This document shows, one piece after another, positions 1 through 39,197 of a stretch of DNA of 39,197 nucleotides. Both the position numbers and the translations under genes were made by a program. The first letter of the stretch is position 1. Each line of letters starts with the position of its first letter. The notes under the pieces were generated by a model. That model did no database searches. It saw only the letters and a list, made by a program, of their open reading frames with translations, and was not told the origin of the DNA. Source of the stretch: Escherichia virus LS2; sequence record MN518894.2; one strand, 5' to 3'.

Positions 1-204
1 TCTCACAGTTCAAGAACCTCAAGTCTCCCCATAGGCCCTCTTTCAGTCCAGACAAAAGGCCCTACCCCAGTCTATCATAAGGCTGGACCGATGGTCAAGA
101 CGTTAGGTCAACGATAGGTCTAGGCTATGGCTGAGGTCAGGACGATAGGTAGGGACTATGGGTCTGCCTCTGAGTCCCTAGGTGTATCAGACATTACGTC
201 ACTA

Positions 205-301
205 CCTACAGTCTAACTACCTACAGTCATTGACTCCTGCCTGCCTACCTACAGTCACCGACCATCGGTAAAGCCATTACCTACAGTCAAAGACCTACAG
301 T
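205..301. repeat. Left-end short direct-repeat array: CCTACAGT at 205, 220, 248, 280 and 294
   Basis: Exact 8-mer occurs 5 times in 97 nt and again at 39137-39144 near the right end; analogous to the short repeats beside the terminal repeat of T7-type genomes. Confidence 0.6.
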
Positions 302-553
302 TAACCGACACAAAGCTATAGACTTAAGGTCTAATACATGTTAGTCAAAGACTATATCCTCTTACACTATGGGGCCGACGATAGCTTAATCAATATTATT
401 TAAGATTACCTATTGACTACAGGTCCAGACTATGGCTTAATAGCTTCCGTCAACACGACACGGCAACAACCGGATAGTGAAGACGCCGGGTCATCCCGGT
501 TAAGTAGACAACCTGATAAGTCATACGAACAACAGGCAGATGACAGAAAGTAG

Positions 554-583
554 TTGACAAGATGTACCGACTTAAAGTAGTAT
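554..583 (+). promoter_or_regulatory. Host sigma70-type early promoter (-35 TTGACA 554-559, 18-nt spacer, -10 TAGTAT 578-583)
   Basis: Consensus -35 and near-consensus -10 upstream of the early gene block, at the position of T7 A promoters. Confidence 0.55.
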
Positions 584-721
584 GTACCACATCAACACGA
601 AACAACGGTGACGACCAACACTGAAACGGTCTACCATGAAGTCGACTGGGAAAGGGAATGCTCTTTAACAATCTGGATAAACTCTTAATGTGCGCCGATA
701 GCGACTAACTACAGGGCCTTT

Positions 722-769
722 GAGTCTACATCTGAAGGCCCTGACTGATAGTCACTAACGGAACAGAGG
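722..769 (+). promoter_or_regulatory. Early-leader hairpin (perfect 9-bp stem cagggcctt / aaggccctg) followed by 20-bp box cctgactgatagtcactaac
   Basis: Perfect inverted repeat 722-730 / 745-753; the 20-bp box at 750-769 recurs exactly at 1409-1428; candidate RNase III processing or stability element. Confidence 0.45.
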
Positions 770-776
770 GACACTG

Positions 777-1022
777 ATGAAACATCTGAGCACCATTACC
801 AACCATAACGAAGTATTCGTGAACACTAAAGGTTATGCGTGGATTCAGCTTAAAGAGACGACAGGAGCGCGTCACCGTGTGGTAGTGCGCAAGGTCTCAA
901 GCAAGCCGTTCAGCAACTACAGCGTAGATACTGTTCGTATAGACAACGAGACCTACCTGATAGACTCGCAGATAACCGTGAGTCCTACAGCGAGCGCCTC
1001 AGCTCCTTATTTCGCTAACTGA
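777..1022 (+). CDS. Early hypothetical protein (81 aa)
   Basis: ORF with GAGGG Shine-Dalgarno 6 nt upstream, first gene after the host promoter; no homolog recognised. Confidence 0.6.
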   Translation: MKHLSTITNHNEVFVNTKGYAWIQLKETTGARHRVVVRKVSSKPFSNYSVDTVRIDNETYLIDSQITVSPTASASAPYFAN

Positions 1023-1095
1023 GAGTGCTTCACTACACGTCTGTACACTCATACCGGCCTCACTCATACTCACTAACAACCTAAGAGGATTCATT

Positions 1096-1374
1096 ATGAG
1101 ACTGAACAAAGCTACAGCAGAAGCCTTTCGCAAGGAGCTTGAATCAAGATTATTGTGTGGAGTGGCGGAAGGAGCCGCTCGGTATAAAGAGAATGGTCTA
1201 ACGTTCAAGCGCTTTATGTGGGATTGCTATCACGGAGTGGGCCATAAAAAGGCGCAGGATATAATCACCAGTAACAATGCGGAAGTGCAAGTGGTGGGAG
1301 GATATATGACTAACGTGAAGGATTCACACATAGAGACCATGCTCAAGAATGCACTTAAAGATGTAGCCTACTAG
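1096..1374 (+). CDS. Early hypothetical protein (92 aa)
   Basis: ORF with AAGAGGA Shine-Dalgarno 6 nt upstream; no homolog recognised. Confidence 0.6.
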   Translation: MRLNKATAEAFRKELESRLLCGVAEGAARYKENGLTFKRFMWDCYHGVGHKKAQDIITSNNAEVQVVGGYMTNVKDSHIETMLKNALKDVAY

Positions 1375-1384
1375 TGATTAACTA

Positions 1385-1428: not shown

Positions 1429-1460
1429 AAACACACACACAACTTTGAGAGGATATAACT

Positions 1461-5549: not shown

Positions 5550-5765
5550 ATGAAATTTGCACACAAGCATGCTGGAGTTAAGGGCGGGACTCAAATCGTG
5601 ACCGTAACAGAACACAACGGCAATGGTCTGGTGAAGACCACGGTCATTCCTACCGAAATGTCAAAGCAGCTTAACGTCCCATTCAAGACCCTCGTCTATC
5701 TTGTGGAATCCAGCCACGAGAAATACCTGAAAGACGCAGTGACCAAGCTGGAGCAGACCAAATGA
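5550..5765 (+). CDS. Hypothetical protein (71 aa) between RNAP and the gene 1.1 promoter
   Basis: Good Shine-Dalgarno GGAGAG; natural codon usage; a degenerate second copy lies at 5843-6151. Confidence 0.65.
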   Translation: MKFAHKHAGVKGGTQIVTVTEHNGNGLVKTTVIPTEMSKQLNVPFKTLVYLVESSHEKYLKDAVTKLEQTK

Positions 5766-5839
5766 CAGACCTACAGTTACTGGCCTTGTGGCTGGGAGCA
5801 CTCGCAGTATTCACTTTAATCCAAAGCAGAAGAGGTTAA
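5762..5839 (+). CDS. Small hydrophobic peptide ORF (25 aa, MTDLQLLALWLGALAVFTLIQSRRG)
   Basis: ATGA overlap with the upstream stop; single predicted transmembrane helix; weak support. Confidence 0.3.
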   Translation: MTDLQLLALWLGALAVFTLIQSRRG

Positions 5840-5842: not shown

Positions 5843-6151
5843 GAAATTTGCACACAAGCATGCTGGAGTTAAGGGCGGGACTCAAATGAACCATCCAGTG
5901 ACCGTAACATAATCTTGAGCTGGCTAACCGGGAACACACACGGCAATGGTCCAAGATTTAGAAGGCTCTGGTGAAGACCACGGTCATTCCTACCGAAATT
6001 AAGCGGATGGTCGGCCTGAAGTTCAAGGCTCTGTTCAAGACCCTCGTCTATCTTGTGGAATTCAAGACCGGGCCAGCCACGAGAAATACCAGAAAGACGC
6101 ACTTCACCACGAGTCGAGACAAGCTGGAGCAGACCAAATGACAGACCTACA
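5843..6151 (+). pseudogene. Block-mosaic degenerate copy of 5552-5775 (gene 5550-5765 plus the first codons of the next ORF)
   Basis: Nine blocks of 6-46 nt 100% identical to the upstream gene, separated by eight replaced blocks of 2-34 nt; ATG replaced by CCG; frame broken. Confidence 0.6.
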
Positions 6152-6343
6152 CGGATGGCTCTCAGAAGGACTTTGAGTACCGACTGAGCGACATCGACGG
6201 TCGCATCCAGTATGACTACGAGCAGGTTAAAGTCTATGGACAGGAGGCCGAACGTGAGCGAGCGATTCAGGCATTCACGCAGGTAAGACCGCGCATCATC
6301 TTACCCCTTTGCCTCCCATTGCCGTTAACCGTTAAAATTCCGT

Positions 6344-6395
6344 GTCGACGTACGTACGTACGTACGTACGTACGTACGTTGCATGCATGCATGCA
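6344..6395. repeat. GTCGAC followed by (ACGT)8 (6348-6379) and (TGCA)4 (6380-6395)
   Basis: Perfect tetranucleotide periodicity; alternating purine-pyrimidine, fully self-complementary; contains SalI, BsiWI, SnaBI, SphI and NsiI recognition sequences. Confidence 0.95.
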
Positions 6396-6417
6396 CTAAA
6401 CTATCACTATAGGATTA
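6395..6417 (+). promoter_or_regulatory. Phage-RNAP promoter (+1 near 6412), phi1.1 equivalent
   Basis: cactaaactatcactata G gatta. Confidence 0.8.
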
Positions 6418-6458
6418 GACTCAAGGTCATGACTCAAAGTCGTGGCCTTCATGATTAA
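6417..6458 (+). promoter_or_regulatory. RNase III-type processing site (R1.1-like)
   Basis: agactcaaggtc...gtggccttcatgatta resembles the T7 R1.1 site as I recall it; two further copies at 13113 and 36188. Confidence 0.6.
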
Positions 6459-6686: not shown

Positions 6687-6950
6687 ATGAACCATTACGA
6701 GCTTAAAGATTTCCTTTCAAAGCAGCAAAGAGTCTTGGACTTGTGGTTGAGCACGACTGGTATGCTCCAGCGTAGACTTAAGGTAGAGCGAGTGTCCTTC
6801 AGGACAGACTACAGCAAGAACGGCTACGAGCGAGGGACCTGCTACCGAGACTTGAGTTTACTGGACTCACTGGGTCCAACAGAATACGCCGATGCCATCG
6901 GTCCGGCTTACAACGGTCTCGCTTACACAATTTGGAGGATAACACAATGA
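6687..6950 (+). CDS. Hypothetical protein (87 aa) at the gene 1.2 position
   Basis: ORF between gp1.1 and ligase; stop overlaps the ligase ATG; no clear similarity to T7 gp1.2. Confidence 0.6.
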   Translation: MNHYELKDFLSKQQRVLDLWLSTTGMLQRRLKVERVSFRTDYSKNGYERGTCYRDLSLLDSLGPTEYADAIGPAYNGLAYTIWRITQ

Positions 6951-7999
6951 CAACTATCAAAACCAACCCGCATCGCGCTGTAGATTACTCTGAGTCAGGC
7001 GTTAAGAAAGCGCTTGAAGCTGCTGGGTCGCTGGAAGCCGAAGTGAAGTATGACGGTGTGCGGTTGAATATTCCGGTGATGCGCGAAGGTGAGAACTACT
7101 GGTTAAGCCGTGAGTCAAAAACGCTTCCGGCCTTAGACTGGGTCAACAGTGAGTCAGGACATGCATGCCGTGCGGCCGACTGGCGATGGTTCCTGAAGCA
7201 AGCAGGACATGAAGTCGTCGGTCTGCTGATTGACGGAGAGGTGCTGGTCAAGGGTGTAGACTTCAACACATCCTCAGGTCTTATCCGCACCATGTGGCTG
7301 ACCCCAAGCAACTACAAGTGCGCTGAAGGCTATCCAAGACGTGGCAACAAGGTCCCATTCCAGATAGCCCGGTTACTACTAAAAGTGGTCGTCTACGGGG
7401 TCATCGACCTTAACATCATCAACGACCCGAAAGCCGAAGGTCCTATCCATAGCGTCACACGCCTGAAGGCCGAAGCTATCGTCCCTCTCCTCCAGAAATA
7501 CTTCCCGGAAATAGACTGGGTTCTGTCTGAGTCATACATCGTGTTTGAGCTTGAGGAGCTTAACTACTTGTATGAAAAGAAGAGCCGAGAGGGCCATGAG
7601 GGTCTGGTGGTTAAAGACCCACTGGGACGCTGGAAGCGTGGCAAGAAGTCAGGTATGTTCAAGATGAAACCCGAAGAGGGCACGGACGGTACGTTGTACG
7701 GCCTGATATGGGGAACAGAAGGTCTAGCCAACGAAGGTATGGTCATCGGCTTTGACGTTATGCTTGAGAACGGGATGGAAGTGAACGCGTGCGGCCTGAC
7801 CGAAGAACAGAAAGATGAATTTACCGCGAGCGTGCTGAACTGGCGCAAAGGCCTGTGCAGCAGCACCATTTATGGCAACCCGTTTGCGGGCAACCAGGTG
7901 GAAGTGCTGTTTATGGAACGCTTTCCGGATGGCAGCCTGCGCCATCCGAGCTTTAAATGCTGGCGCGGCACCGAAGATAACCCGACCGTGAAAAGCTAG
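6947..7999 (+). CDS. gp1.3: ATP-dependent DNA ligase (T7 gene 1.3 homolog); true start ATG 6947 (MTTIKTNP...), C-terminal 73 codons recoded
   Basis: GGAGGA 7 nt upstream of ATG 6947; IKTNP N-terminus and C-terminal PDGSLRHPSF...RGTEDNP match T7 ligase. Confidence 0.93.
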   Translation: MTTIKTNPHRAVDYSESGVKKALEAAGSLEAEVKYDGVRLNIPVMREGENYWLSRESKTLPALDWVNSESGHACRAADWRWFLKQAGHEVVGLLIDGEVLVKGVDFNTSSGLIRTMWLTPSNYKCAEGYPRRGNKVPFQIARLLLKVVVYGVIDLNIINDPKAEGPIHSVTRLKAEAIVPLLQKYFPEIDWVLSESYIVFELEELNYLYEKKSREGHEGLVVKDPLGRWKRGKKSGMFKMKPEEGTDGTLYGLIWGTEGLANEGMVIGFDVMLENGMEVNACGLTEEQKDEFTASVLNWRKGLCSSTIYGNPFAGNQVEVLFMERFPDGSLRHPSFKCWRGTEDNPTVKS

Positions 8000-8152
8000 C
8001 AGAACCCACGGTCCTATACCAGGGTGTGTGACTCAGGCGGTGAACCCGTAGTCACTGCCAATCTGGAGAGAAATACGTTCAATACCAGAAATCAACTGGT
8101 CGATGGCAATAAAGCGTACGTCAGCCGAGGCGGTAGCCTAAGAGATTCATTA

Positions 8153-8192
8153 TAATGTCAACCCAGTGGTCATTAATGTCAACCCAGTGGTC
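8153..8192 (+). repeat. Tandem 19-bp direct repeat taatgtcaacccagtggtc x2 (8153-8171, 8174-8192)
   Basis: Exact duplicate; second copy forms the 5-prime arm of the terminator hairpin. Confidence 0.9.
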
Positions 8193-8216
8193 TTCGGACT
8201 GCTGGGTTTCTTTACG
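8181..8216 (+). terminator. Early intrinsic terminator candidate (TE-like): 12-bp stem, UUCG tetraloop, U-rich tail
   Basis: aacccagtggtc TTCG gactgctgggtt (10 Watson-Crick plus 2 G-U pairs) followed by tctttacg; same architecture as T7 TE. Confidence 0.5.
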
Positions 8217-8235
8217 TCTGGGCCACCAGCCTGAC

Positions 8236-8258
8236 CCTAAGCTATCACTATAGGACAA
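8236..8258 (+). promoter_or_regulatory. Phage-RNAP promoter (+1 near 8253)
   Basis: ccctaagctatcactata G gacaa. Confidence 0.75.
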
Positions 8259-8536: not shown

Positions 8537-8935
8537 ATGGGGAGGGTGTCATACCACCACAGACTGTCAAGCCTGTATTGGTGTCGACCGCTTCCACTGC
8601 TGACGACCGCTTCCAAACTTGTAGGTAACAAAATCGACGCCGTCCGCAAGCCGTCCCACTATCAGGTCTTTGATGGTGTGGAATCCATTGAGATTATCGC
8701 CCGGTCCATGACTGTCAGCGAGTTCCGTGGTTTCTGCATGGGTAACGTCCTGAAGTATCGACTCCGAGCTGGTAAGAAGTCCGAGCTGGCTACTATGGAG
8801 AAGGACCTAAACAAAGCGGCCTTCTATCAGGAGCTGTTCGACCTGCATAAAGGTAAGTGCTATGCCGCCGAGAGACTGGTGCCGGAGAGAGTGACTCTCA
8901 ACCCGGACTATGCATTACCTATACATATACCATAA
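8537..8935 (+). CDS. Hypothetical protein, DUF3310-like (132 aa)
   Basis: AAGGAG 8 nt upstream; motif PSHYQ...GNVLKYRLRAGKK resembles DUF3310 from memory. Confidence 0.55.
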   Translation: MGRVSYHHRLSSLYWCRPLPLLTTASKLVGNKIDAVRKPSHYQVFDGVESIEIIARSMTVSEFRGFCMGNVLKYRLRAGKKSELATMEKDLNKAAFYQELFDLHKGKCYAAERLVPERVTLNPDYALPIHIP

Positions 8936-8953: not shown

Positions 8954-9112
8954 ATGCACATTGAGGAAAAGAAATACATCGTGGAGCTTGAGGGTCGCGT
9001 CCAGTCCTTCGAGGTTCCTGTGTACGCAAAGTCTCTTGAAGAGGCTACCATGAAGTCCCAAGAGTATGAGGACGCTGGGTTTGTGGTCGGACGGATTCGT
9101 CCTGAGACCTAA
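8954..9112 (+). CDS. gp2: gp2-like inhibitor of host RNA polymerase (52 aa)
   Basis: [14 protein letters not shown]...[10 protein letters not shown] resembles T7 gp2 (HSFEVPIYAETLDEA...AGFEVTRVRP); below the ORF-track cutoff. Confidence 0.7.
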
Positions 9113-9130
9113 ACTATCACTGTAGGACAG
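9108..9130 (+). promoter_or_regulatory. Phage-RNAP promoter (+1 near 9125), variant core cactgtagg
   Basis: cctaaactatcactgta G gacag. Confidence 0.7.
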
Positions 9131-10992: not shown

Positions 10993-11128
10993 TCACCGGA
11001 AACATGGGACCATGAGTCCTATGGAAAGTCGTCATTTAGAATTGCGGAGTGACGAATGGCTAAATCGTATTAAGTATCAACAGCCGAGGGTCCACGTTCA
11101 GGTATGATCCACGACAACAAGGCTGAAG

Positions 11129-11151
11129 GCTAAACTATCACCTTAGGGATG
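11129..11151 (+). promoter_or_regulatory. Phage-RNAP promoter, deviant core (ctatcacctta G gg), +1 near 11146
   Basis: gctaaactatcacctta G ggatg; three mismatches to the consensus in -4..-2. Confidence 0.5.
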
Positions 11152-11198: not shown

Positions 11199-12902
<1,704 letters not shown>

Positions 12903-12980
12903 AAGGGACATCGCGGACTATAAGAACGTCGCGGAGGACACGTACGGCTAAAAAAACTTAAAGCTCGCTACCATCGGTTC

Positions 12981-13109
12981 ATGTACAAATGGTGGAGTGA
13001 TGAAGCAACCTGCCTGTCCAACATTCTGGGAGACCAAAGGTTCGACTCTAAGGCATGGAAGAGAGCTAACCGGAAGTTTATGTATCACTTCTTGCGTACA
13101 GACTTCTAG
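12981..13109 (+). CDS. Small ORF (42 aa) between primase and DNA polymerase
   Basis: ATG-initiated ORF, weak Shine-Dalgarno; position of T7 4.x genes. Confidence 0.3.
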   Translation: MYKWWSDEATCLSNILGDQRFDSKAWKRANRKFMYHFLRTDF

Positions 13110-15841: not shown

Positions 15842-16023
15842 AGTCGAGAAGGATCACCGCAAGTACGCTGAGTTGGTCTGTGGAGTGATACCTACGGCTC
15901 AGAGGTAAATCACTGGGACGTATATCGCCAAGTTCAGAAGGAGACCGAAATGTCTTCCAACTTCTGGAGCCAGACATTTATTCGCTGGAAAGGAGCTGCC
16001 GAGGAAGTCGAGCCGAAAGTCTG

Positions 16024-16893
16024 ATGTCTGATAAGAAGATACCTCTGGTTCTGGATGGTGACTATCTGGTCTTCTCTTCTCTGGCTGCTGCCGAGGACGA
16101 GACAGACTGGGGTGATGACATCTGGACCCTTATCTGCGACCACGCCAAGGCTCGTCGTATCCTTGAGAACACCATCGCTGAAATCGTTAAGAAGCGCAAG
16201 GCGTGGAAAGACGCTAAGATTGTGATGTGCTTCACCGACGATCAAAACTGGCGTAAGGACGTTCTGCCAACCTATAAGGCCAACCGTAAAGGTTCCCGCA
16301 AGCCTGTAGGTTACAAGAAGTTCGTAGCCGAACTGATGGCTGACCAACGGTTCAACAGCTTCCTGCGTCCTACGCTTGAAGGTGATGACTGTATGGGTAT
16401 CATCGGGACCCGACCTCAGATTGTTGGCTGTGATCATGCGGTTCTGGTGTCCTGTGACAAGGACTTCAAGACCATCCCGAACTGTGAGTTCTTCTGGTTA
16501 TCCACTGGTGAAATCCTCAGTCATACGACTGCCGAGGCAGACTACTGGCACATGGAGCAAACCATCAAGGGTGACACTACAGATGGCTACGGCGGTATTC
16601 CGGGGCTGGGTGGGGACACCACTCGTGCGTTCCTTGACGAGCCGTACTACTTCGTGCAGGAGAGCCGTGAGCTTAAGACTGGCAAGAACAAAGGCCAGAT
16701 TAAGACCGAATGGAAGAAGTATCCTAAGCGTGAAGACATGACGCTGTGGGACTGCATGGTTACACTGGCTGCTAAGGCTGGTATGACCGAGGAGGAACTT
16801 CTGGTCCAAGCTCAGGTCGCTCGTATTTGTCGAGCCTCCGACTATGACCCTAAGTCCAAGGAGGTCATCCTGTGGACACCATCCATGTACTAA
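16024..16893 (+). CDS. gp6: 5-prime to 3-prime exonuclease (T7 gp6 homolog)
   Basis: 289-aa ORF at the conserved position after gp5.7; FEN-like family by position and length. Confidence 0.85.
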   Translation: MSDKKIPLVLDGDYLVFSSLAAAEDETDWGDDIWTLICDHAKARRILENTIAEIVKKRKAWKDAKIVMCFTDDQNWRKDVLPTYKANRKGSRKPVGYKKFVAELMADQRFNSFLRPTLEGDDCMGIIGTRPQIVGCDHAVLVSCDKDFKTIPNCEFFWLSTGEILSHTTAEADYWHMEQTIKGDTTDGYGGIPGLGGDTTRAFLDEPYYFVQESRELKTGKNKGQIKTEWKKYPKREDMTLWDCMVTLAAKAGMTEEELLVQAQVARICRASDYDPKSKEVILWTPSMY

Positions 16894-17016
16894 ACTGGGT
16901 CGGACTTCTGGCCCTTTACTGCATGTACAAGTGGTTCGGGTCGAACAACCGCCCTAAACACTGAGTCTAACCGATAGTCATATCCTATCAATCCAACAGT
17001 CATCCATAGGTGAAAC

Positions 17017-17039
17017 ACTAAACTATCACTATAGGGACT
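17017..17039 (+). promoter_or_regulatory. Phage-RNAP promoter (+1 near 17034), phi6.5 equivalent
   Basis: cactaaactatcactata G ggact. Confidence 0.8.
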
Positions 17040-19860: not shown

Positions 19861-19957
19861 ACAAAAGTAAGACCGCGTAAGCCAACTCTAGGGGAGGCAT
19901 AAACTAGACTGCGCAGGCAGGTGTTGGCCTATTAACGACTTAAAGGAGAATGACTCA

Positions 19958-20848
19958 ATGTCTCAATCAGTTTATGCCGAGTTCGGCGTTAGCTCTAATG
20001 CAATCACTGGTTCCGTTGAGGACCTGAACGAACACCAGAAGTCTATGCTTGAACAGGACGTATCGGTTCGTGATGGCGACGATGCTATTACCTTCAAGCA
20101 ACTGGAAGCTGAAACCGAAGAGGCTACCGAAGAAGACGATAACGTCGACGAGACTGAAGGTGCGTCGTACGAAGACCACGAGTCCGATGACGAAGAGTCT
20201 GAGACCGATGGTGAGCAGCCTGAGTTCATCGAACTGGGTGATGCACCAAAAGAGCTGACCGAAAGTGTCACCGCTCTGGATGAAAACGAAGCTGCATTCG
20301 ACGACCTGGTGTCTTCTGCTGTAGAAGCTGGCAAGGTCACTGCTGATGAAATTACCGCTATCAAGGCTGAATACGCCAAGGACGGTAAGCTGTCTGACGC
20401 ATCCTACGCTAAGTTGCAGGAAGCAGGTTACACCAAGCGTTTCGTAGATTCGTTTGTCCGTGGTCAGGAAGCTCTTGCTGAACAGTATGCTGCTGGTGTG
20501 GTTCGCTACGCTGGTGGTGCTGAACAGTTTAATCGCATCCTGTCACACCTTGAGTCCAACGACCCGTCAACTCGTGAAGCACTTGAAGCTGCTATCGTTC
20601 GTAAGGACATTGCGACTACCAAAGCTCTGCTGAATCTGGCTGGCAAGACTCTGGGTAAAGCTGTAGGTGTTAAACCTCAGCGAACCATCACCACTCAGGC
20701 TAAACCTGTGGTCGCACCTAAGGCTCCTCAGACAGAAGCATTCAGCTCCAAGGCTGACATGATTAAGGCTATGAGTGACCCGCGATACCTGCGTGACGCT
20801 AAGTACACGATGGAAGTTCGCGCTAAGGTAGCTGCCTCAAGCCTGTAG
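19958..20848 (+). CDS. gp9: Capsid assembly scaffolding protein (T7 gp9 homolog)
   Basis: Acidic 296-aa protein immediately upstream of the capsid gene. Confidence 0.9.
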   Translation: MSQSVYAEFGVSSNAITGSVEDLNEHQKSMLEQDVSVRDGDDAITFKQLEAETEEATEEDDNVDETEGASYEDHESDDEESETDGEQPEFIELGDAPKELTESVTALDENEAAFDDLVSSAVEAGKVTADEITAIKAEYAKDGKLSDASYAKLQEAGYTKRFVDSFVRGQEALAEQYAAGVVRYAGGAEQFNRILSHLESNDPSTREALEAAIVRKDIATTKALLNLAGKTLGKAVGVKPQRTITTQAKPVVAPKAPQTEAFSSKADMIKAMSDPRYLRDAKYTMEVRAKVAASSL

Positions 20849-20849
20849 G

Positions 20850-20872
20850 ACTAAACTATCACTATAGGGAGA
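20850..20872 (+). promoter_or_regulatory. Phage-RNAP promoter (+1 near 20867), phi10 equivalent, closest to consensus
   Basis: gactaaactatcactata G ggaga. Confidence 0.85.
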
Positions 20873-20975: not shown

Positions 20976-22025
20976 ATGGCAAACGTTCCGGGTCAGAAAA
21001 TTGGTACAGACCAAGGTAAAGGCAAATCCAGTTCCGACGCTCTGGCGTTGTTCCTGAAGGTATTTGCTGGTGAAGTCCTGACCGCATTCACTCGCCGCTC
21101 TGTAACTGCTGACAAGCATATTGTCCGTACCATTCAGAACGGTAAGTCTGCTCAGTTCCCGGTCATGGGTCGCACCTCTGGTGTGTATCTGGCTCCGGGT
21201 GAGCGACTGTCCGATAAGCGTAAAGGTATCAAACATACCGAGAAAGTGATTACCATTGATGGTCTGCTGACTGCCGATGTGATGATTTTCGACATTGAAG
21301 ACGCGATGAACCACTATGACGTGGCTGGCGAATATTCCAATCAGTTAGGTGAAGCTCTGGCTATCGCTGCTGATGGTGCTGTTCTGGCTGAAATGGCTAT
21401 CCTGTGTAACCTACCGGCTGCATCCAACGAGAATATTGCTGGTCTTGGCACTGCGTCCGTACTTGAAGTAGGCAAGAAAGCTGACCTCAACACCCCGGCT
21501 AAACTGGGTGAAGCAATCATTGGGCAACTTACCATTGCTCGTGCGAAGCTGACCTCCAACTACGTTCCTGCTGGCGACCGTTACTTCTACACCACGCCTG
21601 ACAACTACTCTGCAATCCTCGCTGCTCTGATGCCGAATGCTGCTAACTATGCTGCGCTGATTGACCCGGAGACTGGTAACATCCGTAACGTAATGGGCTT
21701 TGTTGTTGTTGAAGTTCCACACCTGACTCAGGGCGGTGCTGGTGAAACTCGTGGTGCTGATGGCATCACTATTGCGACTGGTCAGAAGCACGCATTCCCA
21801 GCTACCGCTACTGGTGATGTTAAAGTTGCTCTGGACAACGTTGTGGGCCTGTTCTCTCACCGTTCTGCTGTGGGTACTGTTAAGCTGCGTGACTTGGCGC
21901 TGGAACGTGACCGTGACGTCGATGCTCAGGGCGACCTGATTGTTGGTAAATACGCTATGGGTCACGGTGGTCTGCGTCCTGAAGCGGCTGGCGCACTGGT
22001 TTTCACAGCAGCGGCAGCGGGTTAA
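20976..22025 (+). CDS. gp10A: Major capsid protein 10A (T7 gp10A homolog)
   Basis: Co-linear with T7 capsid (LFLKVF.GEVLTAF, KHTEKVITIDGLLTADV, NAANYAALIDPE, KYAMGHGGLRPEAAGA). Confidence 0.97.
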   Translation: MANVPGQKIGTDQGKGKSSSDALALFLKVFAGEVLTAFTRRSVTADKHIVRTIQNGKSAQFPVMGRTSGVYLAPGERLSDKRKGIKHTEKVITIDGLLTADVMIFDIEDAMNHYDVAGEYSNQLGEALAIAADGAVLAEMAILCNLPAASNENIAGLGTASVLEVGKKADLNTPAKLGEAIIGQLTIARAKLTSNYVPAGDRYFYTTPDNYSAILAALMPNAANYAALIDPETGNIRNVMGFVVVEVPHLTQGGAGETRGADGITIATGQKHAFPATATGDVKVALDNVVGLFSHRSAVGTVKLRDLALERDRDVDAQGDLIVGKYAMGHGGLRPEAAGALVFTAAAAG

Positions 22026-22288
22026 TGACCTTCAAGACCCTCTCTACTGAGGGTCCTACCTTGGAAACCTGGAGTCCTGCAGTGGGTGTCAGTATTAAGG
22101 TTGACTTCCCTGAGCTGGCAGATGTGACCGACTGGTCTCTGCTGGATGTAACCATGCCGGATGGTGTGAGCTACTCTCGTAGAACCAACAGTCTCTACTT
22201 CAAGGCCACCGATGCTGTGACAGGTCTTGTAACTGTTGGATATGACGGGTCTACCGTTAGGTCATTCAACGTTTCGTTCACAAAATAA
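21998..22288 (+). other. gp10B: Putative -1 frameshift site G GTT TTC (21998-22004) and 94-codon -1 frame extension (minor capsid 10B); alternatively an independent 87-aa ORF from ATG 22025
   Basis: Same heptamer context as the end of T7 gene 10A; the -1 frame is open from 22004 to the stop at 22286-22288. Confidence 0.55.
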
Positions 22289-25507: not shown

Positions 25508-25531
25508 CTTATTGAATGGCCTATAGATTTA

Positions 25532-25554
25532 CCTTAACTATCACTATAGGGACT
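25532..25554 (+). promoter_or_regulatory. Phage-RNAP promoter (+1 near 25549), phi13 equivalent, bracketed by a 12-bp inverted repeat
   Basis: accttaactatcactata G ggact; inverted repeat aatggcctatag (25515-25526) / ctataggccatt (25553-25564). Confidence 0.75.
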
Positions 25555-31900: not shown

Positions 31901-32812
31901 ACTGGCAGTAAGCGTCGGTTCGATGACCGCTGGCTTAAGACCGCTGGTATCTCCGACGAGCAGTGGAAGGGCATTAAGTCCCTAATCAGTGAGTCAGTGA
32001 CTCGAGGTCCAGACGGGAAGTATACCATCAAGGATAAGAAGGCGTTCAGTCAGGACCCAAGGGCTATGGACCTGTGGCGTATGGGTGACACCATCGCTGA
32101 CGAAACGTTACCCCGGCCCCACAAGCTGTCAAACATGGACGCCAAGGCTTATGGTCCTCTCGCTAAGACTGTCCTTCAGTTTAAGAACTTCGTCATCAAG
32201 TCCATCAATGGACGTACCATGCGAACCTTCTATAACGCCACGAAGAACAACCGAGCGATGGACGCTGCTCTGTCCACTGTGATCTCTATGGGTCTTGCTG
32301 GTATCTACTACATGGCTCAGGCGCATGTCAAGGCTTACGCTATGCAGGATGGTCGAGACCGTGACTACCTCAAGCAAGCTCTGGACCCGACGATGATTGA
32401 ATATGCAGCTCTATCACGTAGTTCACACCTTGGTGGACCACTTGGGGTAGCTAACATTCTGGGCGGAATCGCTGGGTATGAGGACACTAAGATGCTCCGT
32501 TCGTCTATCCTACCTCGTTCGCCTACAGAGAAGCCTGAACGTGCCATCGCGTATGGTGCGGCTACAAGTGACCCTGTTATGAATGTTGTTGGTAACTTCT
32601 TGGAGCAGGTTCCAGCTTTCGGATATGCTGCTAACGTTGGCGCTTCGGCTTACAACTTGGCTGGCTACCTCAAGGCTGATACTCGCGTCAACGAGCGTGA
32701 CTACATGACCGGGATGTATAATACGTTCCGTGAACTGGTTCCGAACGACCCAACTACCCAGAAGCTGTTGCTTGGAACGTTTGAGGAGCAAGGCATCCAC
32801 ATCAAGGACTAA
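28925..32812 (+). CDS. gp16: Internal virion protein C (T7 gp16 homolog) with a non-T7 N-terminal domain (about 190 aa)
   Basis: From about residue 190 co-linear with T7 gp16 (TRWN.H.W..EEL..IR, VTGGSP.NL, ARETARN, LVRSPTGMQS, NPAMFG, GTYVPHVY, EARNLFDSD, ILTGRARR); AAGGAG 7 nt upstream of ATG 28925. Confidence 0.93.
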   Translation: MATRGIRNNNPGNIRVSKDQWEGMTGDDGAFVTFDSPESGVRALGKNLLSYGRQGYDSIEKIINRWAPPNENDTKAYIDSVVAATGIPATQSLDLSNPDTLSALAQAISFHETGSRYNPEVYQKGVERALNGISPKTPPVSANVFDALTEGLKAKPKVALGENLPNAAGLNIEGQASEAPNESFGEMFYKSTGETMQEREDRSTWFGFGEATKAEVKNSMIGVAIRAGQTEDSLDVIGDVFNPTRWNNHKWSREELDQIRNAGVLPQYYGVITGGSPQNLTELINLALENQKLDQEKAKAGIGAQLAAGVIGAGVDPLTYVPIAGQVGKGGKLVNKMFTVAAQSGALSGVSEMARTSVAGGDAHVAEAILGGALFGGGMTAIADGLGRALGRNTNEFAGPATRLEARETARNVDGQDLSRLPIQEGEQTFSHQGVKFADVPNEPGSVRLEDGSILIGENPLNPKTRQVFDEVIEPERAAAGVNLGGLTEIGLKLLRSENPEIRGVAADLVRSPTGMQSRASGKIGTTASDVFERLRAVDHRFYNDIDDAVTEALKDPYFQTAFWRDSGAFRQDIYQRVSMAIEDGSGNLKAELTTGELKVYDLLKNQFDAKREMMENPAMFGRQDAQSIFPGSRFKGTYVPHVYSKQMKELYIKELGSPEALQEAIKKSWLTSYASRPEVKKRVDEALLEADPTLTPEGLAAAVDKYANDKAYGISHTEQFERSSVMEENINGLVGLENNSFLEARNLFDSDMSIVLPNGQTFSVNNLREWDMDKIVPAYNRRVNGDIAIMAGTGKTTKDMKDLVETMMNKAGDDGKLKGEVSTLRDTLKILTGRARRDGADDAAFATVMRTMTDLSFFAKNAYMGVQNLTEIGGMLARGNVRAMLHGVPMFRDLAFRNKKVGASEIKDLHNVIFGKELDDSIRPSKQDVIDRLRSYSDLGRWAATALGTAKYYTGELAVRSPFTKVLNGTTNYLLDAGRQGFLSDIVEHSLTGSKRRFDDRWLKTAGISDEQWKGIKSLISESVTRGPDGKYTIKDKKAFSQDPRAMDLWRMGDTIADETLPRPHKLSNMDAKAYGPLAKTVLQFKNFVIKSINGRTMRTFYNATKNNRAMDAALSTVISMGLAGIYYMAQAHVKAYAMQDGRDRDYLKQALDPTMIEYAALSRSSHLGGPLGVANILGGIAGYEDTKMLRSSILPRSPTEKPERAIAYGAATSDPVMNVVGNFLEQVPAFGYAANVGASAYNLAGYLKADTRVNERDYMTGMYNTFRELVPNDPTTQKLLLGTFEEQGIHIKD

Positions 32813-32830
32813 ACTATCACTATAGGAAAC
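32808..32830 (+). promoter_or_regulatory. Phage-RNAP promoter (+1 near 32825), phi17 equivalent
   Basis: gactaaactatcactata G gaaac. Confidence 0.8.
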
Positions 32831-32876: not shown

Positions 32877-35576
32877 ATGTCCACGATTACACAATTCCCT
32901 TCAGGAAACACTCGTTACAGGATTGAGTTCGACTACCTAGCCAGAACGTTTGTTGTTGTTACGCTGGTGAATAGCTCTAACCCTGCCCTGAACCGTGTAC
33001 TGGAAGTTGGTCGAGATTACCGATTCCTTAATCCAACGATGATTGAGATGTTGGTTGACCAATCAGGTTTCGACATCGTTCGTATTCACCGTCAGACTGG
33101 AACTGACTTAGTGGTAGACTTCAGGAATGGCTCAGTGTTGACAGCTAGTGACCTGACCAATGCAGAGCTTCAGGCTATCCATATTGCAGAAGAAGGTCGA
33201 GACCAAACTGTTGACTTAGCGAAGGAATATGCCGATGCTGCTGGTAACTCTGCTGGCAACGCTAAGGATAGCGAGGACGAAGCACGACGAATCGCTGAGA
33301 GTATCAAGGCATCTGGTCTGCGAGGCTATATTACCCGTCGCTCCTTCGAGAAAGGCTTCAACGTTACAATATGGAACGAGGTACTGCTATGGGAAGAGGA
33401 TGGTGATTATTACCGATGGGATGGTGGACTGCCAAAAAACGTACCTGTTGGTTCAACTCCTGAAACGTCTGGCGGCGTTGGTTTGGGTGCGTGGGTTAGT
33501 GTTGGTGATGCGTCATTGCGCGCCCGGCCTGCCGAAAAACGTGCCGGTGGGCAGCACCCCGGAAACCAGCGGCGGCGTTGGCGCGATAACGGCGATCCGC
33601 GCGGCTGGGGCGCGATTGGCGATGGCGTGACCGATGATACCCTGGCGCTGCAGGCGTGCTTTGATACCGCGACCTGCGATATTGATCTGGGCGGCAAAAC
33701 CTATCTGGTGCGCAAAAACCCGACCCTGGCGGCGACCTATCCGAACGAACCGGATTTTAGCGATGGCAGCTATAACTATAGCCCGTGCCTGGCGCTGGTG
33801 GGCAAAAAAAACATTAAAATTCATAACGGCGCGCTGATTGTGGAAACCCATGGCCTGGATGCGATTAGCCTGATTGCGTGCGAACATGTGACCGTGGATC
33901 TGACCATTAAAGGCCCGGGCATTTTTCCGGCGATTGATACCCCGACCGGCTATGCGGAAAAAGGCGAAGCGAACTTTGGCTATGATAGCAGCCTGCTGCT
34001 GGCGCCGAACAACGCGCTGGATACCAGCGCGTATACCGGCGGCGCGTATGCGGGCGTGGCGGGCCAGTTTCCGAAATATAACGCGGATGGCAGCCAGGCG
34101 AGCGGCTGGCAGAGCACCTGGGGCACCTTTCTGGGCGGCTATATTGGCAGCTGGGCGTGCGGCGTGAAAGTGCAGCGCGCGTGCCGCGGCATTCTGATTA
34201 ACGATTGCGATATTAGCGGCTTTAACTTTGGCGCGGTGGGCATTGGCATTCGCAACACCGCGGCGGCGTATGGCGCGAGCGATTATACCACCGATGCGGA
34301 TATTCCGGATGGCGTGATGGTGATTAACACCCGCATTCGCAAATGCTATAGCGCGGGCATTTATGTGCTGAGCGGCTATCGCCTGAACTATATGGCGAAC
34401 AACATTGAAGATATTGGCCATCCGAACGGCAACGATGCGCTGAACGCGAGCTATGATCCGGGCTATGGCATTACCCATGGCCGCAACCGCCGCATTCGCA
34501 ACGTGACCATTACCGAAAACATGATTCGCAACTGCCGCCGCAAATGCATTGATTTTCATGGCGGCGGCCAGGCGATTATTGCGAAAAACCATTGCCTGGA
34601 ACATGGCGTGGTGGGCATTTATGCGAAATGCGGCCCGGGCTGGAGCCCGAACTATGAACCGTATAACCTGATTATTGCGGATAACTATGTGCGCAGCCGC
34701 GATGTGCCGGCGAGCGAAACCACCGGCCCGCTGATTGGCGCGAAATATACCCGCAGCATTGATGTGGGCGGCGGCGGCGAAGCGACCCAGGCGACCTATC
34801 CGGATCCGTTTGTGAAAATTCATAACAACTATTGCGAACTGCGCGCGTATGATGGCGTGGCGATTAGCACCGGCGCGGGCGATGATAACTATAACGTGTT
34901 TATGGATATTGATGTGAGCCATAACACCGTGGTGCTGAAATGCAACACCCCGAACAACTTTGCGGAAGGCATTGGCATTAACGCGGGCGCGGCGAGCAAC
35001 AAAGTGTATCGCGGCCAGCGCGTGAAACTGATTGGCAACAGCATTAAACAGCTGAACACCCTGAACCTGACCTATCGCAGCGCGGGCTATAAAATTCAGG
35101 GCATTCCGAAAAGCCTGATTATGCATGGCAACACCCTGGATCTGAACGTGAGCACCCAGAGCTGCAAACTGTGCGATTTTGTGATTGATAGCCGCATTAA
35201 CTATAGCTTTGAAGGCAACCAGGTGCTGAGCTTTAGCGCGCGCGATAGCGCGACCCTGCAGGAAGTGTGGCTGTATGATAACATGAAAATTACCCGCCCG
35301 GCGGCGGCGGCGGCGGCGACCATTAGCGGCAACCTGTTTCGCGGCATTTGGCAGGTGTGCATTGCGGGCACCGGCGATGCGTTTGGCGCGAAACAGACCC
35401 AGTTTGCGAGCACCGGCAGCGGCGGCACCGGCTTTGATGTGGTGCGCAGCGCGACCACCGGCTTTATTGCGACCTTTGGCATTGGCGCGAGCGGCCTGAT
35501 TGTGCCGGCGGTGACCCAGGAAAGCCAGGTGCAGATTAACCTGAAACTGGTGAGCAGCCTGGATAGCGTGGCGTAA
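32877..35576 (+). CDS. gp17: Tailspike / tail fiber (gp17 position): native T7-like N-terminal anchor (to about 33528) fused to a recoded pectate-lyase-like beta-helix (depolymerase-type) domain
   Basis: N-terminus resembles the T7 gp17 tail-binding domain (FDYLARTFVVVTL...); body contains WGAIGDGVTDDTLALQACF; single uninterrupted 899-codon ORF. Confidence 0.9.
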   Translation: MSTITQFPSGNTRYRIEFDYLARTFVVVTLVNSSNPALNRVLEVGRDYRFLNPTMIEMLVDQSGFDIVRIHRQTGTDLVVDFRNGSVLTASDLTNAELQAIHIAEEGRDQTVDLAKEYADAAGNSAGNAKDSEDEARRIAESIKASGLRGYITRRSFEKGFNVTIWNEVLLWEEDGDYYRWDGGLPKNVPVGSTPETSGGVGLGAWVSVGDASLRARPAEKRAGGQHPGNQRRRWRDNGDPRGWGAIGDGVTDDTLALQACFDTATCDIDLGGKTYLVRKNPTLAATYPNEPDFSDGSYNYSPCLALVGKKNIKIHNGALIVETHGLDAISLIACEHVTVDLTIKGPGIFPAIDTPTGYAEKGEANFGYDSSLLLAPNNALDTSAYTGGAYAGVAGQFPKYNADGSQASGWQSTWGTFLGGYIGSWACGVKVQRACRGILINDCDISGFNFGAVGIGIRNTAAAYGASDYTTDADIPDGVMVINTRIRKCYSAGIYVLSGYRLNYMANNIEDIGHPNGNDALNASYDPGYGITHGRNRRIRNVTITENMIRNCRRKCIDFHGGGQAIIAKNHCLEHGVVGIYAKCGPGWSPNYEPYNLIIADNYVRSRDVPASETTGPLIGAKYTRSIDVGGGGEATQATYPDPFVKIHNNYCELRAYDGVAISTGAGDDNYNVFMDIDVSHNTVVLKCNTPNNFAEGIGINAGAASNKVYRGQRVKLIGNSIKQLNTLNLTYRSAGYKIQGIPKSLIMHGNTLDLNVSTQSCKLCDFVIDSRINYSFEGNQVLSFSARDSATLQEVWLYDNMKITRPAAAAAATISGNLFRGIWQVCIAGTGDAFGAKQTQFASTGSGGTGFDVVRSATTGFIATFGIGASGLIVPAVTQESQVQINLKLVSSLDSVA

Positions 35577-35729
35577 GAATGCCTGTGGCTGGAAGCGGCG
35601 TTTCAGCGCCGCCGCTGCGAACGCATTGAAAGCCGCCTGACCGAACTGGAACTGATTATTAAAAAAGCGAAAGAAATTGAATCATAACAACTTTGGGTCA
35701 CGGACGACCCGCTTTAAACTGGAGGTTTT

Positions 35730-35924
35730 ATGATTGAGTTAGACTTCAAGAATGAGGTCCTTAAAGCCTCTCCTATAGTCGGGACCGCTGCGGCTGATGG
35801 TGCCAGTCGGTTCTTCTTTGGACTTACACTGAACGAATGGTTCTACGTTGCAGCTATCGCGTACACCGTTGTCCAGATTGGTGTGCTAGTCTACAAAACG
35901 ATTAAAGGAGGTGGTAAAACATGA
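35730..35924 (+). CDS. gp17.5: Class II holin (T7 gp17.5 homolog)
   Basis: SPIVGTAAADGASRFFFGLTLNEWFYVAAIAYTVVQIG matches the T7 holin. Confidence 0.9.
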   Translation: MIELDFKNEVLKASPIVGTAAADGASRFFFGLTLNEWFYVAAIAYTVVQIGVLVYKTIKGGGKT

Positions 35925-36187: not shown

Positions 36188-36230
36188 TTAGACTCAAGGT
36201 CATTACTGTATGTAGTGGCCTTTATGGTTA
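36188..36230 (+). promoter_or_regulatory. RNase III-type processing site (R18.5-like)
   Basis: ttagactcaaggtcattactgtatgtagtggcctttatggtta. Confidence 0.6.
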
Positions 36231-36285
36231 ACACTAACTAGTGGAGGAGACTCTACGTGCAATCTGATAAACCGGGAGGGCAACT

Positions 36286-36735
36286 ATGCTCGAATTTTTA
36301 AAGAGAGCTGCTCCGTGGTTACTTGCAGCAGTGATGTTTGCTGGTGGCTACCACACCGCTAACAATAAGTGGGAGGCTAAGGTCAATGAAGAATACACCT
36401 CGAATCTTAAGGCATCGGAAGATACAAGGCTTGCTGTCCAAGCTGAAGTCAACAAAGTGTCCAAACGGTTTCAGGACGAAATGTCCTCGCTGGAAGGCAG
36501 CACTGATAGGATTATTGCTGATCTTCAGTCTGACAATAAGCGGCTGCGCATCCGAGTCAAGCCAACGAGTGGAACCACGCAAAGTGACGGTCGATGCGTC
36601 ATTGATGGTTACGCCGAGCTTGACGAAAGAGATGCTAAACGTCTTATCACCATCGGAGTGAAAGGAGACAAGTGGATTAAGGCCCTTCAGGACACTGTGA
36701 GAGCCTTGCAGCAAGATAAGGAGGTGACGCATTGA
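36286..36735 (+). CDS. gp18.5: Rz-like spanin, inner-membrane subunit (T7 gp18.5 homolog)
   Basis: 149 aa with N-terminal transmembrane segment; position after the small terminase. Confidence 0.85.
36386..36661 (+). CDS. gp18.7: Rz1-like outer-membrane lipoprotein spanin embedded in the +1 frame of Rz (start assigned to an internal Met; exact start uncertain)
   Basis: [25 protein letters not shown] matches the T7 gp18.7 lipobox region ([25 protein letters not shown]). Confidence 0.75.
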   Translation: MKNTPRILRHRKIQGLLSKLKSTKCPNGFRTKCPRWKAALIGLLLIFSLTISGCASESSQRVEPRKVTVDASLMVTPSLTKEMLNVLSPSE

Positions 36736-38495
36736 GTAAAGATTTAGTGGCGCGTCAGGCGCTAATGACTGCCCGTATGAAGGCAGACTTCGTGTTCTTC
36801 CTGTTCGTCCTGTGGAAAGCTCTGTCACTACCAGTCCCGACTCGCTGTCAGATTGACATGGCGAAGAAACTATCGGCTGGGGACAACAGGCGTTTCATCC
36901 TACAGGCGTTCCGTGGTATCGGGAAGTCATTCATTACGTGCGCATTCGTGGTATGGAAACTGTGGAACAACCCAGACTTGAAGTTCATGATTGTGTCGGC
37001 CTCAAAGGAACGAGCCGATGCTAACTCCATATTCATCAAGCGAATCATCGACCTCATGCCTCAGCTTCAGGAACTCAAACCTAAGCAGGGACAGCGAGAT
37101 GCGGTTATTAGCTTCGACGTTGGACCAGCCAAGCCAGACCACTCACCTTCGGTTAAGTCCGTTGGTATCACTGGTCAGTTGACTGGTAGTCGTGCTGACA
37201 TCCTGATTGCCGATGACGTGGAGGTTCCGAACAACTCAGCGACTCAGGCTGCCCGAGACCGTCTGTCAGAGCTTGTAAAAGAGTTTGACGCTATCCTGAA
37301 GCCGGGAGGCACAATCATCTATCTGGGTACTCCTCAGAACGAGATGACCCTGTATCGTGAGCTGGAAGGGCGTGGGTATACCACTACTATCTGGCCTGCT
37401 CGTTACCCGCGCGATAAGAAGGACTGGCAGTCTTACGGCGACCGTCTGGCTCCGATGCTTCAGGCAGAGCTGGAAGAGGACCCTGAGTCATTCTACTGGC
37501 GTCCGACCGATGAAGTACGATTCGATGATACGGACCTGAAGGAACGTGAGCTGTCCTACGGTAAAGCTGGCTTCGCTCTACAGTTCATGCTTAACCCTAA
37601 CCTGAGTGATGCCGATAAGTACCCTCTGAAGCTCCGTGACCTTATCGTAGCAGACTTGGACCCAGCGTCCAGCCCAATGGTCTACCAATGGCTTCCTAAC
37701 CCTCAGAACAAGCGTGAGGACGTTCCTAACGTTGGACTCATTGGTGACTCATACCACACGTATCAGACTGTAGGTTCTGCCTTCAGTTCGTACACCCAGA
37801 AGATTCTGGTCATTGACCCTAGTGGTCGTGGTAAGGATGAAACTGGTTATGCGGTACTGTACCAGCTAAACGGCTACATCTTCGCTATGGAAGTTGGCGG
37901 TATGCGAGGTGGCTATGAAGACTCTACGCTGGAAGCCTTGGCTAAGATTGGTCGTAAGTGGAAGGTCAACGAATACGTCATTGAGGGTAACTTTGGTGAT
38001 GGTATGTACCTTGAGCTATTCAAGCCTGTAGCTTCCCGTATTCATCCTGCTGCTGTAACTGAAGTGAAGAGTAAGGGCCAGAAGGAGCTCCGAATCTGTG
38101 ACGTTCTGGAGCCTATCATGGGGTCTCACCGACTTATCGTCAACGCTGCTGCTATCGTACAAGATTACCAGTTGGCCTCTGATAAGGATGGTGTTCGTAA
38201 CCCTATCTACTCTCTCTTCTACCAGATGACACGTATCTCTCGTGAACGTGGAGCATTGGCACACGATGACCGACTTGATGCGCTGGCTATCGGTGTACAG
38301 TTCTTCGTTGAGTCTATGGCGAAGGATGCCAACAAAGGCGAACGTGAAGTCACTGAGGAGTGGCTGGAAGAACAGATGGAGAACCCACGGAAAGGCTTCG
38401 AGTCAATCCACACTGAGTTCTGGGACAATGGGGTCAGGGTAACTCACGATACTGACGACGAGCTGGGACTAGGGTCCTACGTTACGTTCCACTAG
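36732..38495 (+). CDS. gp19: Terminase large subunit (T7 gp19 homolog)
   Basis: 587-aa ORF with ATPase and nuclease regions at the conserved position. Confidence 0.95.
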
Positions 38496-38589
38496 CTGAA
38501 TGAATAACTATAGGCGAAAACTGAATTAATAAGCAGTTAGTAACCTATAGTTACTACCAGCCTAACCTACTGTTTTATAAGGAGTTTGG

Positions 38590-38612
38590 ACTTAACTATC
38601 ACTATAGGGAAG
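38590..38612 (+). promoter_or_regulatory. Phage-RNAP promoter (+1 near 38607), phiOR equivalent
   Basis: gacttaactatcactata G ggaag. Confidence 0.8.
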
Positions 38613-38792
38613 ACCCCCGGTTACTTATAGTATTACTGTAGTGAATATACATATGCAGACTTTATGCAAGACCTTAGGAGGCAGACTCCGAGTTCTTACC
38701 TAAGGCTTGCACCGATGGAAGGAGGGTGATATTAATCATAATCCCTCCTATACAGATAGTCAAAGACCATAGATACAGGAGGTATGTAGCAT

Positions 38793-38951
38793 ATGGCAAA
38801 GACCAAAGCTGTACTTAAAGCTCTGGCGACCAATCGAGCTACATACAGGTTTCTTGCTGCTGTTCTACTTGCTGCTGGCGTTACTGCTGGAAGTCAGTGG
38901 GTCGGGTGGGTCGAGACTCTCGTATGTTCTCTGGTCTCTCAGTGTAATTAA
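38793..38951 (+). CDS. Small hydrophobic protein (52 aa) at the gene 19.5 position
   Basis: ACAGGAGG Shine-Dalgarno; predicted membrane helix FLAAVLLAAGVTAG. Confidence 0.5.
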   Translation: MAKTKAVLKALATNRATYRFLAAVLLAAGVTAGSQWVGWVETLVCSLVSQCN

Positions 38952-39120
38952 CGCAATCATAGTAACGATTCATGAGCGGAAGACCTAAGGTCAGTACGTG
39001 GATAAAGACTCACTCTACTGACCTTAGCTACTGTAGTCAAGGACTTTAGGTAACACCATTTAGAAGCTCACTTAGGGTCATCCTACTTATTGGTCTACTA
39101 GTGGTCATCCTAGTGCCTTG

Positions 39121-39144
39121 GACCTACGGTCCTTGACCTACAGT
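39121..39144. repeat. Right-end copies of the CCTACAGT-type repeat (gacctacggtcc, cctacagt)
   Basis: Same motif as the left-end array, consistent with genome-end repeats. Confidence 0.45.
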
Positions 39145-39197
39145 AGCTGCCACCTACGCGGTCACGATGAGTTTTGGACCAAAAGTTTGAGACCACA

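Follow-up and report, generated by a model that had tools for sequence, protein, structure and literature searches.

In phages of the T7 family, tail-fibre and tailspike swaps are established practice, with the native N-terminal adaptor kept and the C-terminal receptor-binding part exchanged. Natural exchange in the same junction region occurs in the genus Kayfunavirus, among tailspikes of the K1F endosialidase, Peacock and ST1749/LI10P1 types, and can leave a remnant of the older gene's 3' end after the stop codon, as in Peacock itself; such natural exchanges keep natural codon usage and gain changes of both kinds, synonymous and non-synonymous. Filler, and synonymous text that is non-natural on purpose, are also familiar from J. 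Craig Venter Institute (JCVI) watermarks and Sc2.0 PCRTags, and the watermarks are short, documented and designed not to disrupt genes. Finally, DNA blocks with a single codon per amino acid are presumably the kind of output that simple back-translation utilities produce. Here we analyse the deposited genome of Escherichia virus LS2 (MN518894.2; the window is the whole record, 39,197 nucleotides (nt), one strand), whose tailspike gene, DNA ligase 3' end and several smaller stretches recall each of these in part. Judging from the letters of the record and its relatives, we put at roughly 85% the probability that the odd stretches of LS2 were written in silico, not read from DNA, and set into a natural Kayfunavirus backbone.

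Three related genomes serve as the main points of comparison. Peacock is collinear with LS2 from end to end at about 90% global identity (91-92% over the stretches aligned by BLAST). The sister records ECG4 (MN218775.2) and LS3 (MN518893.2), both annotated as Indian sewage isolates, are likewise collinear and near-identical over most of their length, at 93.1-93.2% overall.

The central observation is that four stretches of LS2 use exactly one codon for each amino acid and can all be regenerated by algorithm. The table they share comprises 18 distinct degenerate codons (GCG, CGC, AAC, GAT, TGC, CAG, GAA, GGC, CAT, ATT, CTG, AAA, TTT, CCG, AGC, ACC, TAT and GTG), and it governs 665 codons in the tailspike gene, 71 in the ligase gene, 35 after the tailspike stop and 17 in a motif copy at the tailspike junction. 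The larger of the two recoded blocks that an earlier note on this sequence had reported (33579..35576, + strand, including the TAA stop) is an exact back-translation of residues 235-899 of the Peacock tail spike: applying the fixed table to QEG09711.1 reproduces 1995/1995 nt of 33579-35573. The other (7784..7999, + strand) covers the last 71 codons of the ligase gene plus TAG; the same table reproduces 7784-7996 exactly, and the encoded peptide is contained in the Peacock ligase as its C-terminus. Native genes of the LS2 genome use 46-59 different codons, with 29-40% of them (about 32%) falling within the table set. The chance of such uniformity has a log10 P of -326 for the tailspike block, where all 651 degenerate codons obey the table, and of -34 for the ligase block. 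A genome-wide scan for one-codon runs found one further run besides the tailspike, that at the ligase 3' end, and showed the tailspike run to continue across the stop codon. GC content rises to 0.57-0.59 in the recoded tailspike block.

Two features of these blocks indicate how the text was made. First, the source can be named. Codon by codon, the tailspike open reading frame (ORF; 32877-35576) shows ordinary divergence from Peacock across its first 200 codons, and then, over residues 235-899, 0 non-synonymous and about 430 synonymous codon changes (about 65% of codons), so that a DNA identity of about 75% accompanies 100% protein identity over 665 residues. Several residues separate Peacock from each of two natural Peacock-like tailspikes found in other assemblies; LS2 shows no such difference, which makes the Peacock protein the specific source of the block. 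Second, the table is the commonest codon for 16/18 amino acids in ordinary E. coli K-12 genes (a 50-kb sample) and agrees with the top codon of ribosomal and elongation-factor genes in the same sample for just 7/18; it is thus a table of the naive 'most frequent codon' kind and no design for expression. The likeness to naive E. coli back-translation is base-exact, from public Peacock proteins and with the same one-codon table, but the LS2 text sits in a supposedly natural genome, crosses a stop codon and in one place is written out of frame.

That out-of-frame text lies at the tailspike junction, where the earlier note had described a motif duplication that we also find. The native N-terminal part of the gene (32877..33524, + strand), the particle-binding adaptor with its Pfam Phage_T7_tail and Tail_spike_N domains, is 99-100% identical to ECG4 up to 33524, where the match ends. 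It is followed by 54 nt of filler (33525..33578, + strand) that consist of a C, the one-codon text of GLPKNVPVGSTPETSGG in the +1 frame, and GT. The motif text (33526-33576) is the back-translation of 17 residues whose natural copy (33426-33481) begins exactly 100 nt upstream, at 33426, within the Tail_spike_N domain. Read in the frame of the ORF, the filler gives the nonsense linker RPAEKRAGGQHPGNQRRR, residues 217-234, which takes the place of 18 different Peacock residues and leaves the total at 899.

At the other end of the gene the recoding ignores the gene boundary. Directly after the TAA at 35574-35576 come 35 further one-codon codons (35577-35681), in frame and in the same table, which spell the start-less peptide ECLWLEAAFQRRRCERIESRLTELELIIKKAKEIE and are followed by TCA TAA (35577..35687, + strand), after which native sequence upstream of the holin gene resumes; the earlier report of a recoded peptide in this place thus holds. 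This peptide is similar to the final residues of ST1749/LI10P1-type tail proteins and to the end of the ECG4 ORF, whose equivalent reads ...EAAYQRRRCDRIETRL..., and departs from the latter by conservative changes (Y to F, D to E, T to S). A tblastn search with it returned at best 72% identity over 25 residues, among the C-termini of endosialidase-type tail proteins, and a search of 5.8 billion clusters found no protein with three 5-mers in common with it.

Taken alone, the tailspike gene might suggest a physically engineered phage, in which a synthetic, codon-'optimised' Peacock receptor-binding domain was mounted on the adaptor of a chassis for a change of host range, and the product deposited. 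As in the T7-family swaps, the breakpoint lies just after the Tail_spike_N domain, with the native adaptor retained to residue 216 and a foreign beta-helix part beyond it; the ORF is open and as long as that of Peacock, and its codon usage is clearly synthetic. We nevertheless consider this explanation improbable. The fusion is not seamless, since an 18-residue nonsense linker made from an out-of-frame motif copy joins the two parts, and the synthetic code is not confined to a designed gene, as it runs past the stop into a start-less peptide without known relative and recurs at the end of the ligase gene. That ligase patch, a mosaic that kills two genes and the ACGT filler (both described below) have no engineering purpose, the codon table is naive and not one for expression, and the same filler stands in two records annotated as sewage isolates. 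Nor does the record carry a construct annotation, and our search found no primary paper on LS2, LS3 or ECG4 and none that describes such engineering. Of the earlier proposal of an engineered or computationally modified phage, the evidence favours the computational modification; the physical tail-fibre swap for host range is unlikely, given the nonsense linker and the recoding beyond the stop. Watermarks and recoded tags share with LS2 the deliberately non-natural synonymous text and the filler, and differ from it in that the LS2 stretches break genes and are undocumented.

A second kind of edit lies in the early region, where the earlier note had seen a block-mosaic gene copy. The source is a natural gene for a 71-residue protein (5550..5765, + strand; WFG77594.1 in LS2), identical in IME177, LS3 and 23 contigs. 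Eight blocks of 5552-5775, each of 10-45 nt and together 188 nt, recur collinearly in their original order across the 309 nt of 5843..6151 (+ strand), where they are overlaid at equal length on native sequence. The longer spacers between them are identical to ECG4 in register and all seven are 80-100% so; the spacers correspond equally to native LS3 and Peacock sequence and are unrelated to the source gene. The region shows no insertions or deletions (indels) relative to ECG4, LS3 or Peacock, yet two native ORFs are broken, and the LS2 record annotates no coding sequence (CDS) there. Natural tandem or dispersed duplication was considered for this region and ruled out, as the copy adds no length and overlays non-homologous sequence; a mosaic of equal length and in register is not the outcome of natural duplication or gene conversion between sequences without homology.

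The blocks match the bases that they replaced at 47-51% identity, against 25% for shifted controls (z 5.5-7.6), and the template switches occur at short shared words. These properties suggest that the mosaic may have arisen by an alignment-like process. A specific version of that idea, misalignment followed by consensus, is not demonstrated, because no overlay reproduced the observed sequence.

An origin by natural evolution can be weighed at this point. It would require that a Peacock-like tailspike was acquired horizontally and then diverged, together with a gene duplication and a natural microsatellite, and parts of it are reasonable: exchange of tailspike modules at this junction is common in the genus, with ECG4, Peacock and K1F differing after about residue 215, and HNH genes and small early genes vary naturally. 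LS2 also shares with natural exchanges the junction region and the 3' remnant of an older gene after the stop. However, neither hallmark of such exchanges, natural codon usage or a mixture of synonymous and non-synonymous changes, is seen in the block. A fixed codon at every degenerate position, the complete lack of amino acid change beside several hundred synonymous changes, the exact regeneration of the tailspike block by an algorithm and a mosaic that lies in register with non-homologous sequence are foreign to this process. For the one-codon text and the mosaic, natural evolution is ruled out, and as an account of the whole it has a vanishingly small probability. The earlier judgement that these features are hard to explain by natural evolution is borne out by the ease with which a trivial algorithm regenerates the blocks from public Peacock proteins.

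The third kind of edit is a 93-nt insertion relative to Peacock (6303..6395, + strand) that ends in (ACGT)8 at 6348-6379 and (TGCA)4 at 6380-6395, immediately upstream of a phage promoter. This is the palindromic tract, dense in restriction sites, that had been flagged from the sequence at 6348-6395: a 60-nt stretch here contains 19 six-base palindromes, compared with a genome mean of 0.43 (standard deviation 0.94), and its sites comprise 6 for SnaBI, 7 for BsiWI, 3 for SphI, 2 for NsiI and 1 for SalI. Among 50,697 phage records, (ACGT)8(TGCA)4 is confined to LS2, LS3 and ECG4; it was not found in IMG/VR, and in five natural relatives the tetranucleotide copies never exceed 3. An annotated CDS, LS2_11 (6342-6458; WFG77595.1, an exact match), is translated from the tract and starts MSTYVRTYVRTYV.... 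A second string of this sort, (GACT)3(ACGT)6, stands directly after the tailspike ORF in LS3 and ECG4.

All six features that the earlier note listed are present and go far beyond chance, and the oddities belong to the public deposit. Exact-sequence look-ups showed eight annotated LS2 proteins to be identical to the window (WFG77594-77599, 77602, 77620, 77622), including the tailspike WFG77622.1 with all 899 residues and the odd junction, the ligase WFG77598.1, and further LS2_11, LS2_12, LS2_13, the nucleotide kinase, the primase and gp15; because the LS2 proteins in NCBI and UniRef match exactly, the oddities are properties of that deposit. We therefore give almost no credence to the idea that the edits are present only in the copy analysed here and in no public record. 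The absence of the LS2 record from the searchable phage collection and the gene-position index would fit it, but the exact matches cover the junction, the recoded tailspike and ligase, the frameshift-compensated gene described below and the CDS of the ACGT tract. The odd LS2 proteins are singletons, present only in NCBI and UniRef and without Logan or ENA copies, and the recoded block has 0 exact matches in IMG/VR and JGI metagenomes. A natural isolate with identical sequence at all flagged loci, which would have spoken against any editing, was not found: the sequences occur only in LS2 itself, apart from the ACGT tract with its copies in LS3 and ECG4.

Taken together, about 2.7 kb of the LS2 record, including most of the tailspike gene, is computer-generated and is a database artefact, not biology. 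Protein strings back-translated with the one most frequent E. coli codon for each residue were pasted in at equal length, namely the Peacock tail spike from 235 to 899, the 71-residue ligase C-terminus, LS2's own 17-residue tailspike motif and the 35-residue peptide, and pieces of a neighbouring gene were overlaid in register on 309 nt of native sequence. The equal-length, in-register character of the replacements, seen both in the 18-for-18-codon junction and in the indel-free mosaic, and the disregard of the recoding for the tailspike stop codon are what text written in silico would show. The flagged features are without biological function, and the LS2 phage as written probably does not exist. 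The physical existence of a viable phage in which a 2-kb tailspike module is written in one-codon code, the ligase end is recoded and filler tracts are present is, in our estimate, very unlikely.

As to how such a record came about, the starting point would have been a poor and probably reference-guided assembly with collapsed stretches, frameshifts and ambiguous positions. ORFs may then have been restored when the record was revised, by pasting in back-translated protein, and the remaining repair could have relied on paired indels and on filler such as (ACGT)n and GTC repeats, with T-runs at the same positions in the sister records. LS2 resembles low-quality or chimeric assemblies in its collapsed segments, stutters and compensated frameshifts, in filler positions shared with its sisters and in the residual N of ECG4. 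Ordinary assembly error differs in that it yields neither back-translated protein nor (ACGT)8(TGCA)4.

Several observations weigh against this reconstruction or parts of it. As to the way in which the text was made and the reason for it, the account is an inference from the deposited sequence. The tailspike ORF is intact, and its native adaptor with a foreign receptor-binding part is the layout of real tail-fibre swaps. Global-alignment overlays of the mosaic, under 12 scoring schemes and 5 MAFFT modes, all stayed at least as far from the observed sequence as the native sequence without any modification. Finally, the post-stop peptide is the back-translation of no known protein, which, as far as its sequence can tell, fits better with hand-made or generative text than with the filling of gaps from BLAST hits.

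The last point bears on a variant of the in-silico explanation in which someone altered the text deliberately, or a generative tool (a language model, for instance) produced it, in place of an honest repair of ORFs. In its favour, the post-stop peptide is a conservative paraphrase of a natural C-terminus that had no source in the protein clusters searched; placeholder-like strings such as (ACGT)8(TGCA)4 and (GTC)3 occur together with stutters and skipped segments; the mosaic switches template at short shared words; and the edits lower the identity to the sister records from 97-99% to 93%, under the 95% species line. On the other hand, over 30 kb is free of copying errors and replacements have exact lengths, unlike free generative copying; one deterministic table governs all four one-codon stretches; and nothing here shows intent. 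We regard this variant as less likely than not, but as more probable than the physical existence of the phage as written.

In addition to the text written in silico, LS2 contains several clusters that look like damaged natural alleles. In LS2_13 (6687..6950, + strand), the homologue of a small gene just upstream of the ligase gene whose product Peacock annotates as 'inhibitor of dGTPase', paired indels (+11/-5, -9, -1/+1, +4/-6) preserve an open frame across three frameshifted stretches. It has 84% identity and 41 gap positions against the natural Emlis/LI10P1 allele, and among 15 billion proteins its product forms a singleton cluster. Just downstream of the ligase gene, a collapsed remnant of an HNH homing-endonuclease gene with several internal deletions (8000..8194, + strand) displaces a conserved small gene, MSTQLYINIASGQLY..., that is present in ECG4, LS3 and Peacock and missing from LS2 at 8000-8194. 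The remnant resembles a gene of Salmonella phage CHRF_30111, its deletions total about 100 nt, and it carries a 21-nt tandem duplication (8153-8171 and 8174-8192). The possibility that 7999-8172 represents a reversed, complemented or reverse-complemented form of the lost native gene was rejected, with identity at about 31%; it is the collapsed natural HNH gene. The N-terminus of the nucleotide kinase (8537-8641) is garbled by a local repeat of GACCGCTTCC and by indels, and the protein, WFG77599.1, is again a singleton cluster. Further on, a stretch without ORF (10993..11124, + strand) displaces a conserved 71-residue gene, MIKLIEFLGR...; its similarity is to the first part of HNH nuclease genes that occupy the same site in other relatives, and it contains a diverged copy of the primase leader. 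A filler-like site, GCCGTCGTCGTC, occupies codons 2-5 of the primase (11205..11216, + strand), where ECG4 has GCT and then a T11 run and LS3 has a third version.

The sister records appear to share part of this history. Across 180 small scattered substitution columns, T is the base in 56% for LS3 and ECG4 and in 6% for LS2, in a genome whose T content is 23%; examples in which LS3 and ECG4 agree against LS2 lie at 12890-12982, 19859-19914 and 20163-20167. At such small differing sites LS3 and ECG4 have T-runs, and LS2 has C/G-rich strings such as the one in the primase. ECG4 retains one N together with its T11 run. The three records thus share problem positions that are filled in different ways, and by this evidence they may not be independent assemblies; the collapsed HNH gene, the compensated frameshifts and the T-biased columns look like signs of a poor shared template. 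In the tailspike, the C-terminal part of ECG4 (33682-35746) and LS3 (33680-35744) is natural ST1749/LI10P1-like DNA (87-94% identical) in which more than 40 positions are gaps and two segments are missing; the annotation makes it a single long ORF, whose translation is nonsense. Leaving out the three demonstrably synthetic parts raises the identity of LS2 to the two records to 97.3-97.4%, and leaving out six odd clusters raises it to 98.7-98.8%.

The last figure accords with the earlier description of the backbone as natural and T7-like, as does the gene content. LS2 is a complete, unit-length genome (1..39197, + strand) whose nearest relatives by megablast are the K1F-like T7 relatives of the genus Kayfunavirus; it has the T7-type gene order, a single-subunit RNA polymerase and the full set of intact core genes, and NCBI taxonomy lists it under its own species, Kayfunavirus LS2, in that genus. 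The window spans essentially the whole genome, as had been supposed: the left end is of T7 type, Peacock matches from end to end, and there is no duplication of the right terminal repeat.

Several further features are those of an ordinary phage of this genus. Ten intergenic copies of the phage RNA-polymerase promoter (CTAAACTATCACTATAGGA-like), a normal feature of a natural Kayfunavirus backbone, lie at 2759-2783, 6390-6414, 8231-8255, 9103-9127, 17012-17036, 19833-19857, 20845-20869, 25527-25551, 32803-32827 and 38585-38609, and an eleventh, slightly different, at 11131-11147. The small-gene module before the exonuclease (15843-16042) is unlike ECG4, LS3 and Peacock and matches IME177 at 84-97%, which looks like ordinary natural mosaicism and probably reflects no edit. 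An ORF of 87 codons after the major capsid gene (22025-22288) appears intact in LS2; the Peacock annotation describes this stretch as an extension of the minor capsid protein through -1 frameshifting, a natural feature of T7-like phages. Rfam and tRNA scans of the odd non-coding stretches found no RNA gene.

The LS2 record already serves as a comparator in published phylogenies, and a 2026 paper names accession MN518894.2 for it (PMC13538957). Artefactual tailspike, ligase, LS2_11, LS2_13 and nucleotide kinase proteins now stand in NCBI and UniRef, where they can mislead host-range prediction, depolymerase mining and the training sets of machine learning, and the LS3 and ECG4 records have related problems. 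A scan for one codon per amino acid offers a cheap general detector for contamination of this kind. Should LS2 exist as written after all, it would be a laboratory-built phage that was deposited, and classified by the ICTV, the international committee for virus taxonomy, as a natural sewage isolate; should the text have been altered or generated, it would be a documented instance in which a virus species is defined by invented sequence. The importance of these findings therefore lies in data integrity and not in phage biology, to which they add no novelty. For the genus the consequence is one of rank: the ICTV species Kayfunavirus LS2 has LS2 as its named member, the shortfall of this phage from the 95% species line is artefactual because identity to its sisters is 97.3-98.8% once the synthetic or odd parts are removed, and its separate standing within Kayfunavirus rests on artefacts.

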